The notes: generated from the letters alone by a model not told the origin. DNA of 32,000 nt from Erysipelotrichaceae bacterium (GCA_963663995.1 OY760660.1:1260001-1292000), one strand, 5' to 3'; shown: positions 19,612 to 26,455, counted from the stretch's first letter. Numbers and translations: made by a program.

Positions 19612-20418
19612 CTAAACTCTTCTTACAATTTGGCATTTGTTCAATTTAGAAAGTGCAAAAGAAATAATATGCAATATTTGTAAGCAATCATCTTCATTAT
19701 CGTAACTATATATTTTAGGTTTATGTGATCGAGGATTTCTAAATAAATTCCCAATTGATAATAATAACTGACGATATCCTGTGAATTCATCAATTTCAGA
19801 TTGATTTTTCATTGATGAAAAAACTAGCATTGGAGACTTATCGTTAAATGCTTCATATACAAGACTATTGGAATCAGTTGTTAGACCAGTTAATTTTCTT
19901 ATTTCATCATACAGGGATTTGGATGATTCTAAGATAATATTAAAATAATCTTCATGAATTATATCAGGTTTACAAAAATCAATTATTTTAGGATGAATAT
20001 TTAAATTCTCAAGTTTAACTTTGAATAACTGTGTATCAATCATTGCCTCACGCAATGTAGTTGCCTTTTTAGTAACTACGCATTTACCGGACTCATTAAT
20101 TGTTATTCCATCAAAAGCAAGAATTGTATTAAGAGTTAATCTAAGTTGAATAAAATCATCATGTCTACCAATGAAATTAACTGGGTTAATATAATATTCA
20201 ATTAAAGCGATTATATGATTAGCACAGTCAAATTTTTGTTGATAAAGAGTAAATTGTTTTTCAATTCTTCTCCACTTAGTTGTACGCTCTACATCGTCTT
20301 GTGTTGGGAAATTAACATTTCTAAATTGTTTTGTTAAATTATATCCTGTAGTTAATTCACCAAAGATTTTACTTATTGCTTCTAAAGTGTTAGGTCCAAA
20401 ACATTCTATTTTTGCCAT
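19612..20418 (-). CDS. Ymh/TIGR02391-family protein (HEPN-like, RNPRSH motif) with an unknown N-terminal domain
   Basis: The C-terminal ~120 aa match my recollection of the TIGR02391 layout: SLYDEIRKLTG...LVYEAF...EFTGYRQLLLSIGNLFRNPRSHKP...CLQILHIISFALSKL, including R-x4-H. The ATG at 20418 is preferred because GGGTGGGA lies 6 nt upstream; the ORF track starts at the GTG at 20430. Confidence 0.8.
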   Translation of the reverse strand: MAKIECFGPNTLEAISKIFGELTTGYNLTKQFRNVNFPTQDDVERTTKWRRIEKQFTLYQQKFDCANHIIALIEYYINPVNFIGRHDDFIQLRLTLNTILAFDGITINESGKCVVTKKATTLREAMIDTQLFKVKLENLNIHPKIIDFCKPDIIHEDYFNIILESSKSLYDEIRKLTGLTTDSNSLVYEAFNDKSPMLVFSSMKNQSEIDEFTGYRQLLLSIGNLFRNPRSHKPKIYSYDNEDDCLQILHIISFALSKLNKCQIVRRV

Positions 20419-20525
20419 TAATTTTCCCACCCATTTTCTACTTTCAAATATAACATCTAATAAGTTAAATTTCTAATTGCTTAGATTGTGTAATAATAAT
20501 ATCAATGATTAATTGGTGAGGGAAT

Positions 20526-20882
20526 ATGAAACAAAATTCTGAAACACAAATTCAAAAATGGAACGAAACATTAATTGAAATTATTGAGAGGATTGATTGG
20601 TATTACTTTGAGCTTGATGCCAATTCACAAAAAATATTGGATAATAAAGATTATAGAAATCATCCAATTTCAACATCTATGGCACAACTAAGAATATTTT
20701 CCTTTGAACTTAGCGATGAGGTTAATAAGGATATTTTGAAAGAAATTCTAAAACTAGTCTATAAGTATGATAAGTACAAAATCTATAGTATGGAAACAAT
20801 TATTGAGGATATTATGAATTTATATATTACAGATTTATCTATGTTAATAAATCAAATATATGATCATATGTTAAGTAAATAA
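20526..20882 (+). CDS. Hypothetical 118-aa protein, first gene of a two-gene operon
   Basis: Good SD (GGTGAGGG). No recognisable motif; probably helical. Its stop lies 13 nt before the next gene's ATG. Confidence 0.6.
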   Translation: MKQNSETQIQKWNETLIEIIERIDWYYFELDANSQKILDNKDYRNHPISTSMAQLRIFSFELSDEVNKDILKEILKLVYKYDKYKIYSMETIIEDIMNLYITDLSMLINQIYDHMLSK

Positions 20883-20895
20883 ATGGTAATTGAAA

Positions 20896-21828
20896 ATGAG
20901 TGAAAGAAAATGTTTAGTTTGTGGATCTTCAGAATGTAAAATAACTGAGAATCCTGGCTATAAAAGCATAGTGAACTGTAAACATGGGTTCAAATACATT
21001 GTTTTTGATGAAGTGTTTGAACAGCAGGATGACATTCTAATCAAGTGTAGTAGTTTGATTTTAGAAAAGTTATTACAAAATAGAAACGAAATGCTTATCT
21101 TTTACTATGACAAAGAAAAAAATGAAGACTTAGGAATTAATTTATATAATCTAATAATTAATTATCCAAAGAATATTTCTCAAAAAATAGATAGAATTCT
21201 TTTAAATTTAACTAACAGGCACCCAATCTATGGATATATGTTTAGAACGGATGATTTGGATGACAAATTATTATTCCCTGAAACAAATCAATATCTTGAG
21301 TATGATGGAATTCTAAATATGCTCATCGATTTAAAATATCTAACAAGAGATAATAGAGATGAATATTTTATTATTACATCTAAAGCGTGGGAAAGAGTTG
21401 AGAGTTTACAAAAATCAGCACAAACAACTAACACTGCTTTTCTTGCTATATCATTTGGATCTGAGTCTGAGACCATAATAAAATCGATAAGGAAAGCTGT
21501 CACAAGTTGTGGTTATGATTTTATGATTATTAGTGAGAAAGAGCATAATAATCAGATAGTTCCAGAAATACTATATGAGATAAGTAAAAGTAAATTCGTT
21601 GTTGTCGATATAACACATGGTAATTTTGGAGCTTATTATGAAGCGGGTTATGCGCATGGAATCGGTAAAGAAGTAATTGTGTGCTGCAATAAAGGCAATT
21701 TCCAAAGTGATGATAAAGAAAAACACCCACACTTTGATATATCGCAGAAGAACATGGTTTTATGGGATGATCTCTTAGACTTAGAAGAAAGACTAGTCAA
21801 GAGAATTCAATCAACCGTGGAGGAATAG
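20896..21828 (+). CDS. Zn-ribbon + wHTH-like + nucleoside 2-deoxyribosyltransferase/DNPH1-like (SLOG/TIR-related Rossmannoid) domain protein
   Basis: N-terminal C8-x2-C11...C30-x-H32 (numbering from the TTG at 20890). The C-terminal 182-295 reads AFLAISFG...SKFVVVDITHGNFGAYYEAGYAHGIGKEVIVCC...HFDI, matching the NDT-family core (D/T.G..[FY]E.GyA...gK.vi). An alternative TTG start is at 20890. Confidence 0.65.
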   Translation: MSERKCLVCGSSECKITENPGYKSIVNCKHGFKYIVFDEVFEQQDDILIKCSSLILEKLLQNRNEMLIFYYDKEKNEDLGINLYNLIINYPKNISQKIDRILLNLTNRHPIYGYMFRTDDLDDKLLFPETNQYLEYDGILNMLIDLKYLTRDNRDEYFIITSKAWERVESLQKSAQTTNTAFLAISFGSESETIIKSIRKAVTSCGYDFMIISEKEHNNQIVPEILYEISKSKFVVVDITHGNFGAYYEAGYAHGIGKEVIVCCNKGNFQSDDKEKHPHFDISQKNMVLWDDLLDLEERLVKRIQSTVEE

Positions 21829-21943: not shown

Positions 21944-22061
21944 GAGAGTATAAAATATTTTGTGTAAACGTCTCTAAGTAGAAGAGACGGTGTTCTTTGA
22001 AAGAGTGGGAAGCACTCATGTAAAATGTAGTTGTTCAGAAAACAATTACAGGAGACTTCCC

Positions 22062-23252
22062 ATGTCAAATTTTAGCACAGATTTAATGAGCGCATTTCTT
22101 AAAGGTGAAAGTATCGAAGAAGTGATGCGAATCGAACTTGAGAAAGCTGTTAATGAGTTATTACAGTTAGAGTTAACCAGTTATCTAGACTATGATAAAT
22201 ATGATCCCATTGGTTATAACACAGGTAACTCAAGAAATGGAACTTACACACGTCAACTCAAAACACGCTTTGGAGAAATCAGTGTAGAAATACCACGAGA
22301 TCGTAATGGAGAATTCAAGCAGCACACAGTTCCCAGTTATAAGCGAAGCACCGATGATTTAGAATCCATGATTATTCAGATGTATCAACGTGGGATAACG
22401 ACATCTGAGATATCAGAACTCATTGAACGCATGTTTGGAATGTATTACACACCGCAAACGATATCGAATATGACGCAAGTTCTAAGTGATCAAGTTGAAG
22501 CGTTTCATACCCGTCAAATTCAGTCTCGATATGTCAGTTTATATCTGGATGCGACTTACTTAAGCGTAAGACGAGATCGTGTCTCTAAAGAAGCTTTACA
22601 CATCATTGTCGGGATTACAGAGGAAGGCATCAAAGAGATTCTAGATTATCGTCTATATCCTTCAGAATCCTCTGAGAACTATCGAGAAATGCTTGAAGAC
22701 TTAAAGTCACGAGGATTAGAAGAAGCACTCATATGTGTCAGTGATGGGTTAACTGGGCTAAGAGATGTTTGTTTAGAAGTATTCCCACAAACTCAACATC
22801 AAAGTTGTTGGGTACATCTATCAAGACGCGTAGGTCATTTAGTTAGAGCTAAAGACAAAGGGATTGTGTTGAATGATTTGAAGGATGTTTATCAAGCTAA
22901 AACAAAGAATGAAGCTTTGATTAATTTAGAAGTTTTTAGAACCAAATATGAAAGACATTATCCTAAAGCCGTTCAAGTCCTAAGCAATACTGAATCACTT
23001 CTAAGCTTCTATAACTTCCCACAATCCATTCAAAGAAGTATTTACACAACTAACTTGATTGAAAATCTAAACAAACAACTCAAACGTCAAACGAAGAAAA
23101 AAGAACAGTTTCCCAATGAAGAATCTTTAGACAGATTCATCTGTAGTCTGTTCTTGAATATGAATCAAAAGTTCCAAAGTAGAATCCACAAAGGATTCAA
23201 TAAATCTGAATACGAATTAGAAAAACATTTCGACAAAACATTTTACGAGTAA
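22062..23252 (+). CDS. IS256-family (Transposase_mut/MULE) transposase
   Basis: The 396-aa layout and blocks resemble IS256 transposases (YLDYDKYD...NSRNGTY, LYLDATYLSVRR, ISDGLTGL, TTNLIENLNKQLKRQTKKKEQFPN). AGGAG lies 7 nt before the ATG at 22062; the GTG at 21990 would read through the IRL. Confidence 0.9.
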   Translation: MSNFSTDLMSAFLKGESIEEVMRIELEKAVNELLQLELTSYLDYDKYDPIGYNTGNSRNGTYTRQLKTRFGEISVEIPRDRNGEFKQHTVPSYKRSTDDLESMIIQMYQRGITTSEISELIERMFGMYYTPQTISNMTQVLSDQVEAFHTRQIQSRYVSLYLDATYLSVRRDRVSKEALHIIVGITEEGIKEILDYRLYPSESSENYREMLEDLKSRGLEEALICVSDGLTGLRDVCLEVFPQTQHQSCWVHLSRRVGHLVRAKDKGIVLNDLKDVYQAKTKNEALINLEVFRTKYERHYPKAVQVLSNTESLLSFYNFPQSIQRSIYTTNLIENLNKQLKRQTKKKEQFPNEESLDRFICSLFLNMNQKFQSRIHKGFNKSEYELEKHFDKTFYE

Positions 23253-23287: not shown

Positions 23288-24744
23288 GGGCGTGCGGACA
23301 TAAAGTTGGACAAAGAGGAGAAATATGCCAACTTATTCAAAACAACAAGTTAAAATAGCTTTAGAACTTTATAGAGAAGAAAGAAGCGCAACACAAGTCG
23401 TGAGGAAATTAGGTTATCCCACAAAAGCTACTATTTACCTTTGGTTAAGTCGTGAAAAAACAAACTCTAATAATCAGATTAAAAATACAGACTCTTATTC
23501 ATATCTAAAACGGAAAACGATTTCACCAGAACTTAAAATAAAAATCATTAAACGATGTTTTGAGGATGGGGAAGATGTTAGATATGTGGCAGAGGAGATG
23601 GGAGTTAGTCGACAAAGCATTCATAATTGGCGTAGAATAATTGAAACCAAAGGATTAATTGGACTAATGAATAAAGATAAGCAGAAGATTATCAAACCAA
23701 ATCTCACAGAAAACAAAGAAATAAAACAAGCGAATACAGAAGAAATCAATTCACTTTTAAATGAAATCAAATCATTAAAAATGGAAGTAGATCTTCTTAA
23801 AGAGGCATTAGATTTAATAAAAAAAGATAAAGGCATTGGTTATCTAAAACTAAAAAATAGTGAAAAAATCCAGTTAATCAATGCCTTAAAAAAAGAATAT
23901 CCATTGAAAGATTTACTAGAACGATTGAACATTCCAAAAAGTTCATATCATTATCATCTAAAGAAATTAAAAAGTCGTGATAAGTATGAAAATTTGTGTT
24001 TAAAAATAAAAGAAATTTATGAATTAAACCGTTGTGTATATGGTTATCGAAGAATAAAGATTAGTCTAAACAATCAAGGAGTCATTGTTTCTGAGAAGGT
24101 TATACGTCGTCTTATGAAACAGATGGAACTAAACCCAAAGTACAAAAAGAAAACAAGAAAGTATAGCTCATATCAGGGTGAAATATCAGAAGCTCCAGAC
24201 AACATTATTAATCGAGATTTCAAATCTGATTATCCAAATCAAAAATGGCTCACAGATATAACTGAATTCGCGTTATCAAATGAAAAAGTATACCTCTCTT
24301 CAATCGTTGACTGTTTTGATGGGAAGATTATTTCTTGGAATACGAGCACTCGTCCTGACGCACAACTAGCTAATGAATCACTAATAGATGCATGTAAGAC
24401 ATTAAAGAAGTCTGATAATGTGATACTTCATTCTGATCGTGGTGGACACTATCGATGGAGTAACTGGATAAATATCACCAAAGAACACAATATTATTCGA
24501 TCTATGTCTAAGAAAGGTTGTACGGGTGATAACGCTGCTTGCGAAGGTGTATTTGGTCATATAAAAAATGAATGTTTTTATGGATTAGATTTTAGAGATT
24601 TTAACGCCGAAGAATTTATTGAATATTTAAATAATTATCTAGTGTGGTTTAATGAAACTAGAATTAAAATAAAATTTGCATGTAGTATTAATGAAAATCG
24701 ACAAAAATACGGTTATTAAAGTCCAACTTTATGTCCGCACGCCC
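23288..24744 (+). mobile_element. IS3-family insertion sequence, 1457 bp, perfect 24-bp terminal inverted repeats, 3-bp TSD CTA
   Basis: GGGCGTGCGGACATAAAGTTGGAC at 23288-23311 equals the reverse complement of 24721-24744. CTA is at 23285-23287 and at 24745-24747. Confidence 0.9.
23325..24719 (+). CDS. IS3-family transposase, OrfA-OrfB fused in a single frame
   Basis: N-terminal HTH regions, then a heptad Leu region, then the DDE/rve core (WLTDITEF, HSDRGGHY, GDNAACEGVFGHIKNE). An A7G run sits at the usual OrfA/OrfB junction (23819-23826). Confidence 0.9.
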   Translation: MPTYSKQQVKIALELYREERSATQVVRKLGYPTKATIYLWLSREKTNSNNQIKNTDSYSYLKRKTISPELKIKIIKRCFEDGEDVRYVAEEMGVSRQSIHNWRRIIETKGLIGLMNKDKQKIIKPNLTENKEIKQANTEEINSLLNEIKSLKMEVDLLKEALDLIKKDKGIGYLKLKNSEKIQLINALKKEYPLKDLLERLNIPKSSYHYHLKKLKSRDKYENLCLKIKEIYELNRCVYGYRRIKISLNNQGVIVSEKVIRRLMKQMELNPKYKKKTRKYSSYQGEISEAPDNIINRDFKSDYPNQKWLTDITEFALSNEKVYLSSIVDCFDGKIISWNTSTRPDAQLANESLIDACKTLKKSDNVILHSDRGGHYRWSNWINITKEHNIIRSMSKKGCTGDNAACEGVFGHIKNECFYGLDFRDFNAEEFIEYLNNYLVWFNETRIKIKFACSINENRQKYGY

Positions 24745-24817: not shown

Positions 24818-25144
24818 CTATTCTTCCTCAACACTTACTAAAAATAATTGTTGATCAAACTTACCATTCTTAATAGCTTTAACTGCTTGAGCCATATTTA
24901 CTTCAGATGAAGTAATAAGATACTTCTCTTTTATCTTGTCCATGACTTCTTGTAGATCTGCTAACTCTTGTATCATTGAAGCTTTATCTTGAGCTTGAAC
25001 TGCTTCACGTGCTTCTTCTACGAGTTTTTCTTTTAGTGCTACTAAAAAGGTTTCATCATCTAAGCTTATGAATTCAGCATGTTTACCATCTTTATTAATG
25101 ATTGCAGGTATATTATCTCTTACTAATTTTTTATAGATTTTCAT
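24818..25144 (-). CDS. MazG-like all-alpha NTP pyrophosphohydrolase (PRA-PH-like small family)
   Basis: MKIYKKLVRDNIPAII N-terminus is typical of this family. Metal-binding motifs EEAREA and ELADLQE are present. The ATG at 25144 is preferred, 1 nt after the upstream TAA. Confidence 0.75.
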   Translation of the reverse strand: MKIYKKLVRDNIPAIINKDGKHAEFISLDDETFLVALKEKLVEEAREAVQAQDKASMIQELADLQEVMDKIKEKYLITSSEVNMAQAVKAIKNGKFDQQLFLVSVEEE

Positions 25145-25145
25145 A

Positions 25146-25562
25146 TTAAATTTCATACTCACTACTAATTCTCAAATAAATTCTTTGTTCTTTTGTTGAA
25201 TTGATTTCATCATAAACAAAAATGCCGATAAAACGATAACCATCCATTGTATTTTGGTCTTTTACAAACGTTACTCTAGTATGTTTAGATTGTTTTTTTA
25301 ATTTAGTTATTTCTTTCGAGTCATCTCTAGTTTCAATTATAACTTTTCCATTATCAGAAATTATGTTTATCCAACCATGATTTGATGGTGATACAAATAC
25401 ACCATTTTCTTTATAAGCCAATTGTGGACACCATGCATACAAATTACCTTTAATTGGAAAATAACCGTGTTGCATAGCTTTGACATCTTTACCAAGCGTA
25501 TTAGCTATATCTACAATTAGTCTATATCTTTCAACATCATTAATCGTTAACTTTTCTTTCAC
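25146..25562 (-). CDS. Hypothetical 138-aa protein (GTG start), middle gene of the operon
   Basis: GGAGGA SD lies 9 nt upstream of the GTG. No family recognised. The pattern looks beta-rich (YFPIKGNLYAWCPQL, GWINIISDNGKVIIE, RVTFVKD, YRFIGIFVYDE). Confidence 0.6.
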   Translation of the reverse strand: MKEKLTINDVERYRLIVDIANTLGKDVKAMQHGYFPIKGNLYAWCPQLAYKENGVFVSPSNHGWINIISDNGKVIIETRDDSKEITKLKKQSKHTRVTFVKDQNTMDGYRFIGIFVYDEINSTKEQRIYLRISSEYEI

Positions 25563-25585
25563 TTAATAAATATCCTCCAATTAAA

Positions 25586-26455
25586 TCAAAATACTCCTAT
25601 AATTTTCCAAACAGTACTTTCTTTTTTTCTAAATGTATTTTTCGTACCAAATCCAAGTTTTGAAATTTCAGCAAATAAATCGGCATTTATTCCAAAATCA
25701 TCATTATATTCTAGTAATAAATGAAAATTTCTAAGATCATGGTTCAATCTACCTTCACCAACACTTTGCCATGTAGGTTCATGATGATACCATGCCAAGT
25801 TGTCAGGTAATTTCAAAGATTCATTATTTATATATTCAGCGTTATAAATTAACTTCTTATCTTTAAGTAATTTAACATTTATCTTGGTCTTTGCTTTTTT
25901 CTCAGCATCTAGCTCATTTATTGAATTGAAATCCCACCCAGAAATATATTCTACATTTATTTTCTTCGCACCAAGGTTTGTTAACAATAGGATTAGTTCT
26001 GAAAACTTATGTTCAAATGCTTTCTTATGAAACTCGTTTATTGGATAATACGTACCTATCAAAGTTGGATGTGCAACATACAATTCATTTTCTCTTGGAT
26101 GACCTATTGGAAATTTTAAATCTAATGAATCAGTGAACGAAATATAATTAACATTTACTCGCTTTGCTAACTCTCTTTGCTTTTTTATAGAGTTTAATAC
26201 CACATCTATCACTGCTATACCTATTCCAGCTGCTAACGGGACAACACCAAAACCTCTTATACTAATAACGCCAGCTATTATCGATCTCCACAAATTATCG
26301 TTGGAATCCTCATTTTTATCATTATCTTTTTCTTTTGACTTAATTTCTGATTCAAATATTTTTTCTTCTGCTAACAATTTCGTTTCGATAATCTCATCTT
26401 TTTCTACGACTAGAAACTGTCTTAAAGAATACGGTTTATCTATTAAATTTCCCAT
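25586..26455 (-). CDS. Membrane-anchored hypothetical protein (acidic N-tail, hydrophobic segment res 56-89, ~200-aa C-terminal domain)
   Basis: 289-aa ORF with AAGGA 7 nt before the ATG. The hydrophobic stretch is WRSIIAGVISIRGFGVVPLAAGIGIAVIDVVLNSI. The C-terminal domain (LAWYHHEPTWQ, FHLLLEYNDDFGI) is not recognised. Confidence 0.6.
   Translation of the reverse strand: MGNLIDKPYSLRQFLVVEKDEIIETKLLAEEKIFESEIKSKEKDNDKNEDSNDNLWRSIIAGVISIRGFGVVPLAAGIGIAVIDVVLNSIKKQRELAKRVNVNYISFTDSLDLKFPIGHPRENELYVAHPTLIGTYYPINEFHKKAFEHKFSELILLLTNLGAKKINVEYISGWDFNSINELDAEKKAKTKINVKLLKDKKLIYNAEYINNESLKLPDNLAWYHHEPTWQSVGEGRLNHDLRNFHLLLEYNDDFGINADLFAEISKLGFGTKNTFRKKESTVWKIIGVF

Follow-up and report, generated by a model that had tools for sequence, protein, structure and literature searches.

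The DNA analysed here is a window of 32,000 nucleotides from an Erysipelotrichaceae bacterium (GCA_963663995.1 OY760660.1:1260001-1292000), in which an initial annotation, made from the sequence alone, had pointed to a divergent trio of genes: one for a 268-aa protein with a Ymh-type HEPN domain and, on the other side of a short intergenic region, an operon encoding a 118-aa protein and a 310-aa protein in which a zinc ribbon is joined to a domain resembling nucleoside 2-deoxyribosyltransferases (NDT). All coordinates given below are positions in this window, and the numbers L001 to L184 denote the loci fetched for comparison. The three open reading frames (ORFs) claimed for the trio were all recovered at the same positions (Table 1). 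The same arrangement is present, at 82–90% protein identity, in a Logan contig (L004), and comparison with this homologous block gave ratios of non-synonymous to synonymous substitution (dN/dS) of 0.07 for the HEPN gene, 0.26 for the 118-aa gene and 0.15 for the 310-aa gene; since these values range from 0.07 to 0.26, the three ORFs are real genes under purifying selection and not chance ORFs. Rather than the single regulated unit proposed at first, we consider it fairly probable that the segment holds two functionally independent defence-type units, adjacent to each other within a mosaic island and co-inherited in one lineage.

The start of the HEPN gene was placed at its ATG because the alternative GTG at 20430 falls within the Shine-Dalgarno (SD) sequence GGGTGGG and because the homologues are 265–268 aa long. 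The divergent intergenic region measured 107 bp and the distance from the stop codon of the 118-aa gene to the ATG of the 310-aa gene 13 nt, in agreement with the earlier description. Good SD sequences had been attributed to both transcription units, and this holds for the leading gene of each, the 118-aa gene having a strong one (GGTGAGGG) and the HEPN gene a good one (GGGTGGGA), but not for the 310-aa gene, whose SD is weak (TGGTAA). The intergenic region also contains an imperfect 13-nt inverted repeat (20455-20467 / 20474-20486), which may be an operator; in a promoter scan, promoter-like sites were not above shuffled expectation.

The C-terminal part of the 268-aa protein was confirmed as a Ymh-like HEPN domain by two models, both above their curated cut-offs: Pfam PF09509 (Hypoth_Ymh), which covers residues 140-259 with 96 bits against a cut-off of 25 (E 1.8e-27), and TIGR02391, with 91.7 bits against 39.45. 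The motif FRNPRSH noticed earlier is indeed encoded at 19723-19743, and its residues R227, N228 and H232 are invariant in an alignment (A2) of 11 homologues of 26–90% identity; the protein is, as far as its sequence allows, a predicted RNase effector. The PADLOC search that had been proposed was run, and residues 1-263 aligned with positions 1-264 of the 270 of the profile PD-Lambda-3_B (PDLC03987, E 3.6e-47), while PHROG 6297 was matched with an E value of 4.6e-60. In PD-λ-3B, residues 6-112 match AbiJ_NTD3 with an HHsearch probability of 97.8% (Vassallo 2022 supplement, PMC9519451). A Pfam scan of the window protein gave no direct match for its N-terminal domain; it is the full-length homology with PD-λ-3B that answers the question, raised in the initial annotation, of what residues 1-140 might be. 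The HEPN protein is thus, on sequence grounds, homologous to PD-λ-3B, whose AbiJ-NTD3-like plus Ymh layout it shares, and belongs to a described family of the abortive-infection (Abi) type; the first impression that no named system was involved does not stand for this gene, the Ymh family having been described in 2013 (Anantharaman et al., PMC3710099). Neither the Pfam nor the PADLOC scan revealed in it a domain for binding a ligand or sensing a nucleotide signal.

Ymh has been reported as a HEPN family found 'solo', fused to AbiJ-NTD, AbiTii or pMORC, and 'in operon with R-M', that is, with restriction-modification genes, and the division of labour proposed for them is that AbiJ-NTD-type domains perceive components of the phage and that the killing of the cell falls to the C-terminal enzyme (PMC3710099). 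The homologues that we collected, either alone in prophages or embedded in restriction-modification (R-M) operons, fit this published description. Lone homologues were found in the lysogeny or early regions of prophages of Streptococcus, Lactococcus (TP712 orf5) and Erysipelothrix, including IPP34 and Javan514, and in 39 of 85 viral loci the gene is oriented against both of its neighbours. In the loci L178-L184, where the Ymh-HEPN homologues are full length and 30–34% identical, the gene lies between hsdM and hsdS of type I R-M operons in L178, L180 and L184 (stop/start overlap, 4 nt), the ones in which the neighbours were annotated with Pfam; the same operon pattern was recognised in L179, L181 and L183 as judged by gene sizes. 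In L180 a RhuM-Fic gene comes after hsdS, and in L178 a YhcG PD-(D/E)XK gene precedes the HEPN gene. Among the closer relatives, a 73%-identical homologue has small phage-like genes as neighbours, and a 70%-identical one adjoins a PIN_3 protein.

The 310-aa protein had been described as a zinc ribbon joined to an NDT-like domain, and this description proved correct, as supported by conserved cysteines, sub-threshold matches to NDT and TIR models and fold matches. In the family alignment (A1), two cysteines of the ribbon, C9 and C28, never vary, and the other two, C6 and C14, are conserved to at least 90%. An AlphaFold2 (AF2) model built on A1 (predicted local distance difference test, pLDDT, 87.6) consists of the ribbon, with strands at 15-19, 23-27 and 33-37, a helical region, and an α/β domain from residue 180. 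The middle region ends in a winged-helix-like unit (H133-145, E149-151, E157-160, H162-175), and one family member has a weak match to HTH_45; Foldseek searches of the PDB and of viral models returned no structural neighbour for this region. Conservation is very strong in the C-terminal domain, where HNNQIVPE, N-x-GAYYEAGYA and PHFDISQK stand as invariant motifs. When this domain was compared with the PDB by Foldseek, matches were obtained to the TIR domain of SARM1 (the best one, E 7e-4, probability 1.0), DNPH1/Rcl, the CMP N-glycosidase BcmB and plant TIR domains such as that of RPS4, with TMt values of 0.62–0.69 to DNPH1 and BcmB; against viral models, the matches were nucleoside 2-deoxyribosyltransferases and TIR proteins.

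A PDB profile search aligned the family motif '...FVVVDVTYPNYGAYYEAGYAQALGKEVI' with 'VVVAEVTQPSLGVGYELGRAVALGKPIL' of Rcl, so that E249, in the motif GAYyEAGyA, falls on the glutamate of GVGYELGRA in Rcl/DNPH1, which we take to be the catalytic residue. The same invariant residue had been called E251 in the initial annotation, a number that corresponds to the 312-aa count from the TTG. As for family models, PF05014 scored 16.9 bits in the window protein against a gathering cut-off of 28.8 and was sub-threshold in all 40 of the 40 family members (best E 5.8e-5); Pfam TIR (PF01582) reached 14.3 bits against 21.3; DUF4062 was weak in 4 of 40 members (best E 0.0026) and was not found in a scan of the window protein. 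The family as a whole has no significant Pfam match, and PADLOC 2023 gives weak domain-level matches, to NsnC and to a TIR effector, both with E 1.2e-5. In the light of the model, the protein is TIR at the level of the fold and not at that of the family. A match to PHROG 16139 was also recorded (E 3.1e-34). Taken together, sequence and model suggest that the 310-aa protein is plausibly a stand-alone defence protein combining a sensor with an N-glycosidase.

The 310-aa family comprises at least 614 proteins, mostly of 310–335 aa, conserved over their full length at ~40% identity, with a patchy, strain-specific distribution; its hosts are mainly Clostridia and Erysipelotrichia, with some other phyla and one archaeon. 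A census of 106 nearest neighbours from 54 non-redundant loci revealed no constant partner. The commonest neighbours were type III Mod (7), ResIII-helicase proteins, either type III Res or type I HsdR (7), and RE_endonuc (5), followed by type I S/M/R subunits, MmeI, BsuBI/PstI, serine and tyrosine recombinases, KAP NTPase, TIR_2 and AbiEii-like ATPases. Several homologues are nested in type III R-M operons, in the order mod-[X]-res, or inside type I R-M (L051, L052, L058 and L063, and also L016, L046, L048 and L053), often with gaps or overlaps of a few nucleotides. The gene also often has an integrase immediately before it, as do the homologues of 44–47% identity, located at the boundary of an integrated element.

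The 118-aa protein had no match in Pfam, NCBIfam, PADLOC, PHROGs or the PDB profile search, and when 1.84 billion representative proteins were scanned exhaustively with HMMER, three relatives emerged: the L004 copy (87% identical), a 62-aa fragment and a 118-aa protein of 46% identity. The last of these (L092 6001-6357; also L093-L095) is encoded by a phage gene between a late transcriptional regulator (phrog_36) and terS, and no HEPN or NDT-like gene was found near it. The slot between the phrog_36 regulator and the small terminase is a typical position for accessory genes. A single-sequence AF2 model of the 118-aa protein is all helix and, with a pLDDT of 46, unreliable. Rather than being generally required by the 310-aa family, the protein is probably a passenger of phage origin or an accessory confined to this lineage. 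The block shared with L004 contains, in addition, a small ORF, 76–80% identical in protein sequence to its L004 counterpart; in the window copy, an in-frame TAA (19263-19265) removes the first 14 codons, and no relatives of it were present in the other fetched loci.

The co-occurrence and synteny survey suggested in the initial annotation was carried out from the side of both families. Besides L004, the survey of the 310-aa family covered 77 loci from species-representative genomes and the contig loci L005-L008, each with ±5-6 kb of sequence; neither a Ymh gene (tblastn and a profile hidden Markov model from A2) nor a homologue of the 118-aa protein was found in any of them. Since the 118-aa homologue is absent from the other 310-family loci examined, the family appears to need no 118-aa partner. 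Starting from the HEPN gene, no full-length 310-family or 118-aa gene was present in 85 viral and 39 metagenomic Ymh loci. The trio is found together in 1 of ~82 310-family loci, that of the close relative L004, and apart from this sole exception the homologues were not in company, essentially the outcome that the initial annotation had itself named as refuting; the idea of one regulated three-gene unit is not supported by such a distribution. What stands of the original proposal is that a role in defence is plausible for the genes and that the setting was rightly recognised as a defence island; the single new three-gene system is the part that finds no support.

A partnership of Ymh with more distant NDT-like genes was considered as well. 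Prophage proteins of ~230 aa carry an N-terminal NDT-like domain with the motif D-x-TG-x-N-P-N-V-F-x-E-L-G (examples are L126 6216-6947, L150 8214-8909 and L139 7303-7989), and morons of this kind are present in 45 annotated records of Streptococcus and Staphylococcus phages in INPHARED (Javan37, SM1 gp10/11, SA13). They occupy the near-integrase slot of the lysogeny module that is also used by the Ymh gene in 10 other phages. As the 45 and the 10 annotated records never coincide (overlap 0), a recurrent Ymh and NDT partnership in streptococcal prophages was rejected, and the two kinds of gene seem to replace each other as cargo at a single hotspot instead of acting as partners.

Some observations weigh against the independence of the two units and must be set beside this survey. 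The segment 19144-21843 (2.7 kb) is shared with L004 as a single piece between unrelated flanks, with a HpaII R-M system and an integrase on the side of L004 and PDC-S46 and insertion sequence (IS) elements on that of the window, and every gene in the shared block is under purifying selection. The intergenic region is ~92% identical to that of L004, as against 84% for the block, where the synonymous divergence (dS) is 0.28–0.78, and this better conservation would fit a coordinated regulation; within the operon, the 13-nt spacing and the weak SD of the 310-aa gene suggest coupled expression with the 118-aa gene. A distant ~230-aa NDT-like gene lies 0.4-3 kb from a Ymh gene in ~7 streptococcal prophage loci, among them a few IMG/VR contigs. 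Moreover, the homologues used for synteny were at most 47% (310-aa) or 73% (HEPN) identical, a sample outside which a link restricted to a small clade would lie. As the 118-310 operon is tight and the divergent region conserved, a functional link specific to this lineage is still conceivable.

Two independent units nevertheless remain the reading that we prefer, and starting from the observed domain identities, motif conservation, purifying selection and lack of co-occurrence, we infer the enzymatic activities, the triggers and the abortive outcome as follows. In the first unit, the solitary HEPN protein would use its AbiJ-NTD3-like N-terminus to sense a phage component; its HEPN RNase, with an RNxxxH active site, would most likely be inactive until infection, by homology with PD-λ-3B and AbiJ/Ymh proteins, and would then cleave RNA, leading to abortive infection or growth arrest. 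In the second unit, the 118-310 operon, the 310-aa protein would act as an autonomous effector: the half made of the zinc ribbon and the winged-helix-like region may recognise a phage cue, and the NDT/TIR-like domain, once activated, is predicted to hydrolyse, through Glu249, the N-glycosidic bond of NAD+ or of a (deoxy)nucleotide. Such a logic would be analogous to that of Swarozyc and of NDT-like retron effectors, the effector of retron Eco1 being NDT-like.

Among the alternatives, the one that survives best, unlikely as we judge it, is that the 118-310 operon is a toxin-antitoxin-like pair in which the 118-aa protein neutralises or regulates an NDT-like toxin, the HEPN gene being unrelated. 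A small helical protein encoded upstream of an enzyme is a typical toxin-antitoxin layout, and here the two genes are co-oriented, closely spaced and kept together in L004, with the 118-aa gene maintained by selection. Against such a pairing speak the absence of a 118-aa homologue from the 77 genome loci and L005-L008, the rarity of its relatives, of which one stands beside a phage terS without an NDT-like gene, and the lack of any DNA-binding or antitoxin family match for the 118-aa protein.

We give a low probability to an integrated system in which the HEPN, 118-aa and 310-aa proteins, perhaps with the small ORF at 19269, are governed by the shared divergent control region, as would be the case if the NDT/TIR-like enzyme made or destroyed a nucleotide signal controlling the HEPN RNase and the 118-aa protein were an adaptor or inhibitor. 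The preservation of the block in two genomic contexts, the selection on all of its genes and the conserved intergenic region argue for it, and signalling from a TIR-type enzyme to an effector is well established, as in Thoeris. It is opposed by the survey, in which a close relative supplies the sole co-occurrence and ~124 Ymh loci contain no full-length 310-family gene; moreover, HEPN homologues at 70–73% identity are without the partners, both families are commonly alone, annotated phage records with Ymh and with NDT-like morons are mutually exclusive, and the HEPN protein has no detected domain to receive a nucleotide signal. It is likewise rather improbable, in our opinion, that within a small lineage the whole 2.7-kb block (small ORF, HEPN, 118-aa and 310-aa genes) is an integrated, co-regulated and cooperating composite; one possibility for it would be that a nucleotide-derived signal, or a depletion, is coupled to RNA cleavage, with the 118-aa protein as a decoy or a trigger-sensing adaptor. 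More likely than such a composite is that the 310-aa family alone represents a new, widespread single-gene anti-phage system, often nested in type III or type I R-M operons.

A role outside defence, with the 310-aa protein as a nucleoside 2-deoxyribosyltransferase of salvage or as a regulator and the HEPN protein as a non-catalytic RNA-binding or housekeeping protein, appears very improbable, because the label 'nucleoside 2-deoxyribosyltransferase' given to two homologues by the Joint Genome Institute (JGI) and the weak PF05014 matches of all members tested are outweighed by the score of that model below its gathering cut-off, by the zinc-ribbon and winged-helix architecture, the patchy distribution, the AT-rich island and the R-M and integrase neighbours, by a HEPN motif that is intact and invariant, and by the experimentally established anti-phage protection by PD-λ-3.

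The location of the trio between an ABC ATPase and insertion sequences, inside an AT-rich island, was borne out by library scans and by the profile of guanine plus cytosine (GC) content, which is 0.23–0.27 over ~15–21.5 kb as against 0.30–0.39 in the flanks. Upstream lie a 700-aa ABC/SMC-like ATPase and a Sau3AI-type R-M pair, and downstream two transposases, of the IS256 and IS3 families (Table 1). The PDC-S46-like ATPase, which is not present in L004, is a separate single-gene defence candidate; as a partner of the HEPN protein it was discarded, being convergent with it, missing from L004 and negative by tblastn in 85 loci (L001-L085), the later loci having been checked for it against ORFs of at least 50 aa. 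The methyltransferase and endonuclease genes (13417..14661, minus strand, and 14707..16113, plus strand) together constitute a full type II R-M pair, situated at the island's left border. On the side where the two transposases follow the 310-aa gene, L004 has an integrase. The hairpin present at 21969-21989 could represent either a terminator or the end of an IS. Farther to the right, the region 24818..26455 (minus strand) includes a 138-aa ORF with an SRA domain (25146..25562), which covers the C-terminal half alone of a methyl-directed restriction enzyme model (positions 155-285 of 294) and is accompanied by an overlapping 114-aa ORF with weak MazG/PRA-PH-like matches and by an unassigned 289-aa ORF; it is possible that a type IV/IIM enzyme is broken or split in this region.

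Table 1. Features of the trio and of its surroundings, in window coordinates.
Feature	Position	Strand	Basis or remark
C5 cytosine methyltransferase	13417..14661	-	divergent from restriction endonuclease gene
Sau3AI-family restriction endonuclease	14707..16113	+	NCBIfam, 412 bits vs cut-off 300
ABC/SMC-like ATPase, 700 aa	16844..18946	+	PADLOC candidate PDC-S46, full length, E 3.3e-100; PHROG 38705
Small ORF, 56 aa (72 aa in L004), convergent with and downstream of HEPN gene	19269..19439	+	
HEPN gene, 268 aa from ATG	19612..20418 (alternative GTG 20430)	-	ORF call
Ymh-type HEPN domain, residues 140-259	19642..20001	-	PF09509 and TIGR02391
HEPN catalytic motif, R227-N-P-R-S-H232	19723..19740	-	translation and alignment A2
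HEPN N-terminal domain, ~residues 1-135, putative phage-sensing or regulatory	20014..20418	-	full-length PD-Lambda-3_B alignment
Divergent intergenic region with both SDs and presumably both promoters	20419..20525	.	107 bp
118-aa gene	20526..20882	+	ORF call
310-aa gene, ATG 20896 (312 aa from TTG 20890)	20896..21828	+	ORF call
N-terminal zinc ribbon, C6 C9 C14 C28, three short strands	20896..21006	+	alignment A1 and AF2 model
Middle helical region ending winged-helix-like, putative recognition module	21007..21420	+	AF2 secondary structure
C-terminal NDT/TIR-like (flavodoxin-like) domain, residues 180-307	21433..21816	+	PF05014 sub-threshold and Foldseek
E249 codon, predicted catalytic nucleophile	21640..21642	+	invariant in A1
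IS256-family transposase (Transposase_mut, E 1e-105), right after 310-aa gene	21990..23252	+	
IS3-family transposase (rve and HTH)	23325..24719	+	

The proposed three-gene system is in this way largely explained away and resolves into a known logic. The HEPN gene is of an already known kind, and the most novel element is the 310-aa family, a widespread candidate variant of the defence enzymes of TIR/NDT type; within that superfamily, it is a good candidate for a new N-glycosidase that acts in defence on its own. This family also adds an example of R-M operons serving as landing pads for abortive-infection genes.

Several known systems were compared with the two units. A HEPN-MNT toxin-antitoxin module was rejected, as no nucleotidyltransferase family match was obtained in the neighbouring ORFs with Pfam, PADLOC and NCBIfam scans. 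Menshen, in which NsnC, a protein with an inactive PIN and a nuclease, works with NsnA and NsnB (PMC12065111), was also set aside: the NsnC match of the 310-aa protein is short (58 residues, 193-250, E 1.2e-5) and generic Rossmann-like, and NsnA (ParB-DUF262) and NsnB were not found nearby.

Closer to the 310-aa protein is Swarozyc, which consists of a DUF4062 TIR-like NADase and a winged-helix AUX domain binding the phage portal (bioRxiv 10.64898/2026.05.01.722283). In both cases a single polypeptide, found in a defence-island context, unites a catalytic domain of the TIR/NDT superfamily bearing a conserved glutamate with a recognition domain of the winged-helix type, a putative one in the 310-aa protein; the 310-aa protein differs in having its catalytic domain at the C-terminus, so that the order is reversed, in its extra zinc ribbon and in being closer to NDT/DNPH1 than to DUF4062. 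Membership in Swarozyc was rejected on account of the missing DUF4062 match and the reversed domain order. With DNPH1/Rcl and BcmB, the protein shares the fold, the aligned motif ...V(T)xPxxGxxxExGxAxxxGK... and the glutamate, but it has an N-terminal extension of 180 residues and a sequence similarity below the Pfam threshold.

On the side of the HEPN protein, the likeness to the Ymh/AbiJ-type proteins of PMC3710099 lies in an Rx4-6H Ymh HEPN domain, in an N-terminal domain of the AbiJ-NTD type and in the occurrence alone or in R-M operons; the Ymh fusions listed there are to AbiJ-NTD1, pMORC and AbiTii, whereas the N-terminus of the window protein appears from its sequence to be NTD3-like, as in PD-λ-3B. 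The system PD-λ-3 of E. coli ECOR28 is composed of A, a PD-(D/E)XK-like nuclease, B, with AbiJ_NTD3 (6-112) and Hypoth_Ymh (140-258), and C, a β-propeller of ~480 aa; this system, containing the homologue B, protects experimentally against phage (PMC9519451), and acts by abortive infection, for which it serves as a control in a later paper (PMC13190303). The locus was rejected as a member of PD-λ-3 since the A and C components are absent: no PD-Lambda-3_A match at E ≤ 0.1 was present in the ORFs scanned (16844-21828, 14707-16113 and 24818-25562), Pfam gave no nuclease family match within the block, and no ORF with the size or family of the ~480-aa β-propeller adjoins the HEPN gene. The window HEPN protein aligns with PD-λ-3B over its full length and has the same two-domain layout, and the difference is one of company, with three genes, A, B and C, in E. 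coli and a solitary B-like gene in Gram-positive prophages. The fact that Gram-positive PD-λ-3B-like proteins are solitary or embedded in R-M operons suggests that B may provide the core abortive-infection activity of PD-λ-3, to which A and C would be accessories.

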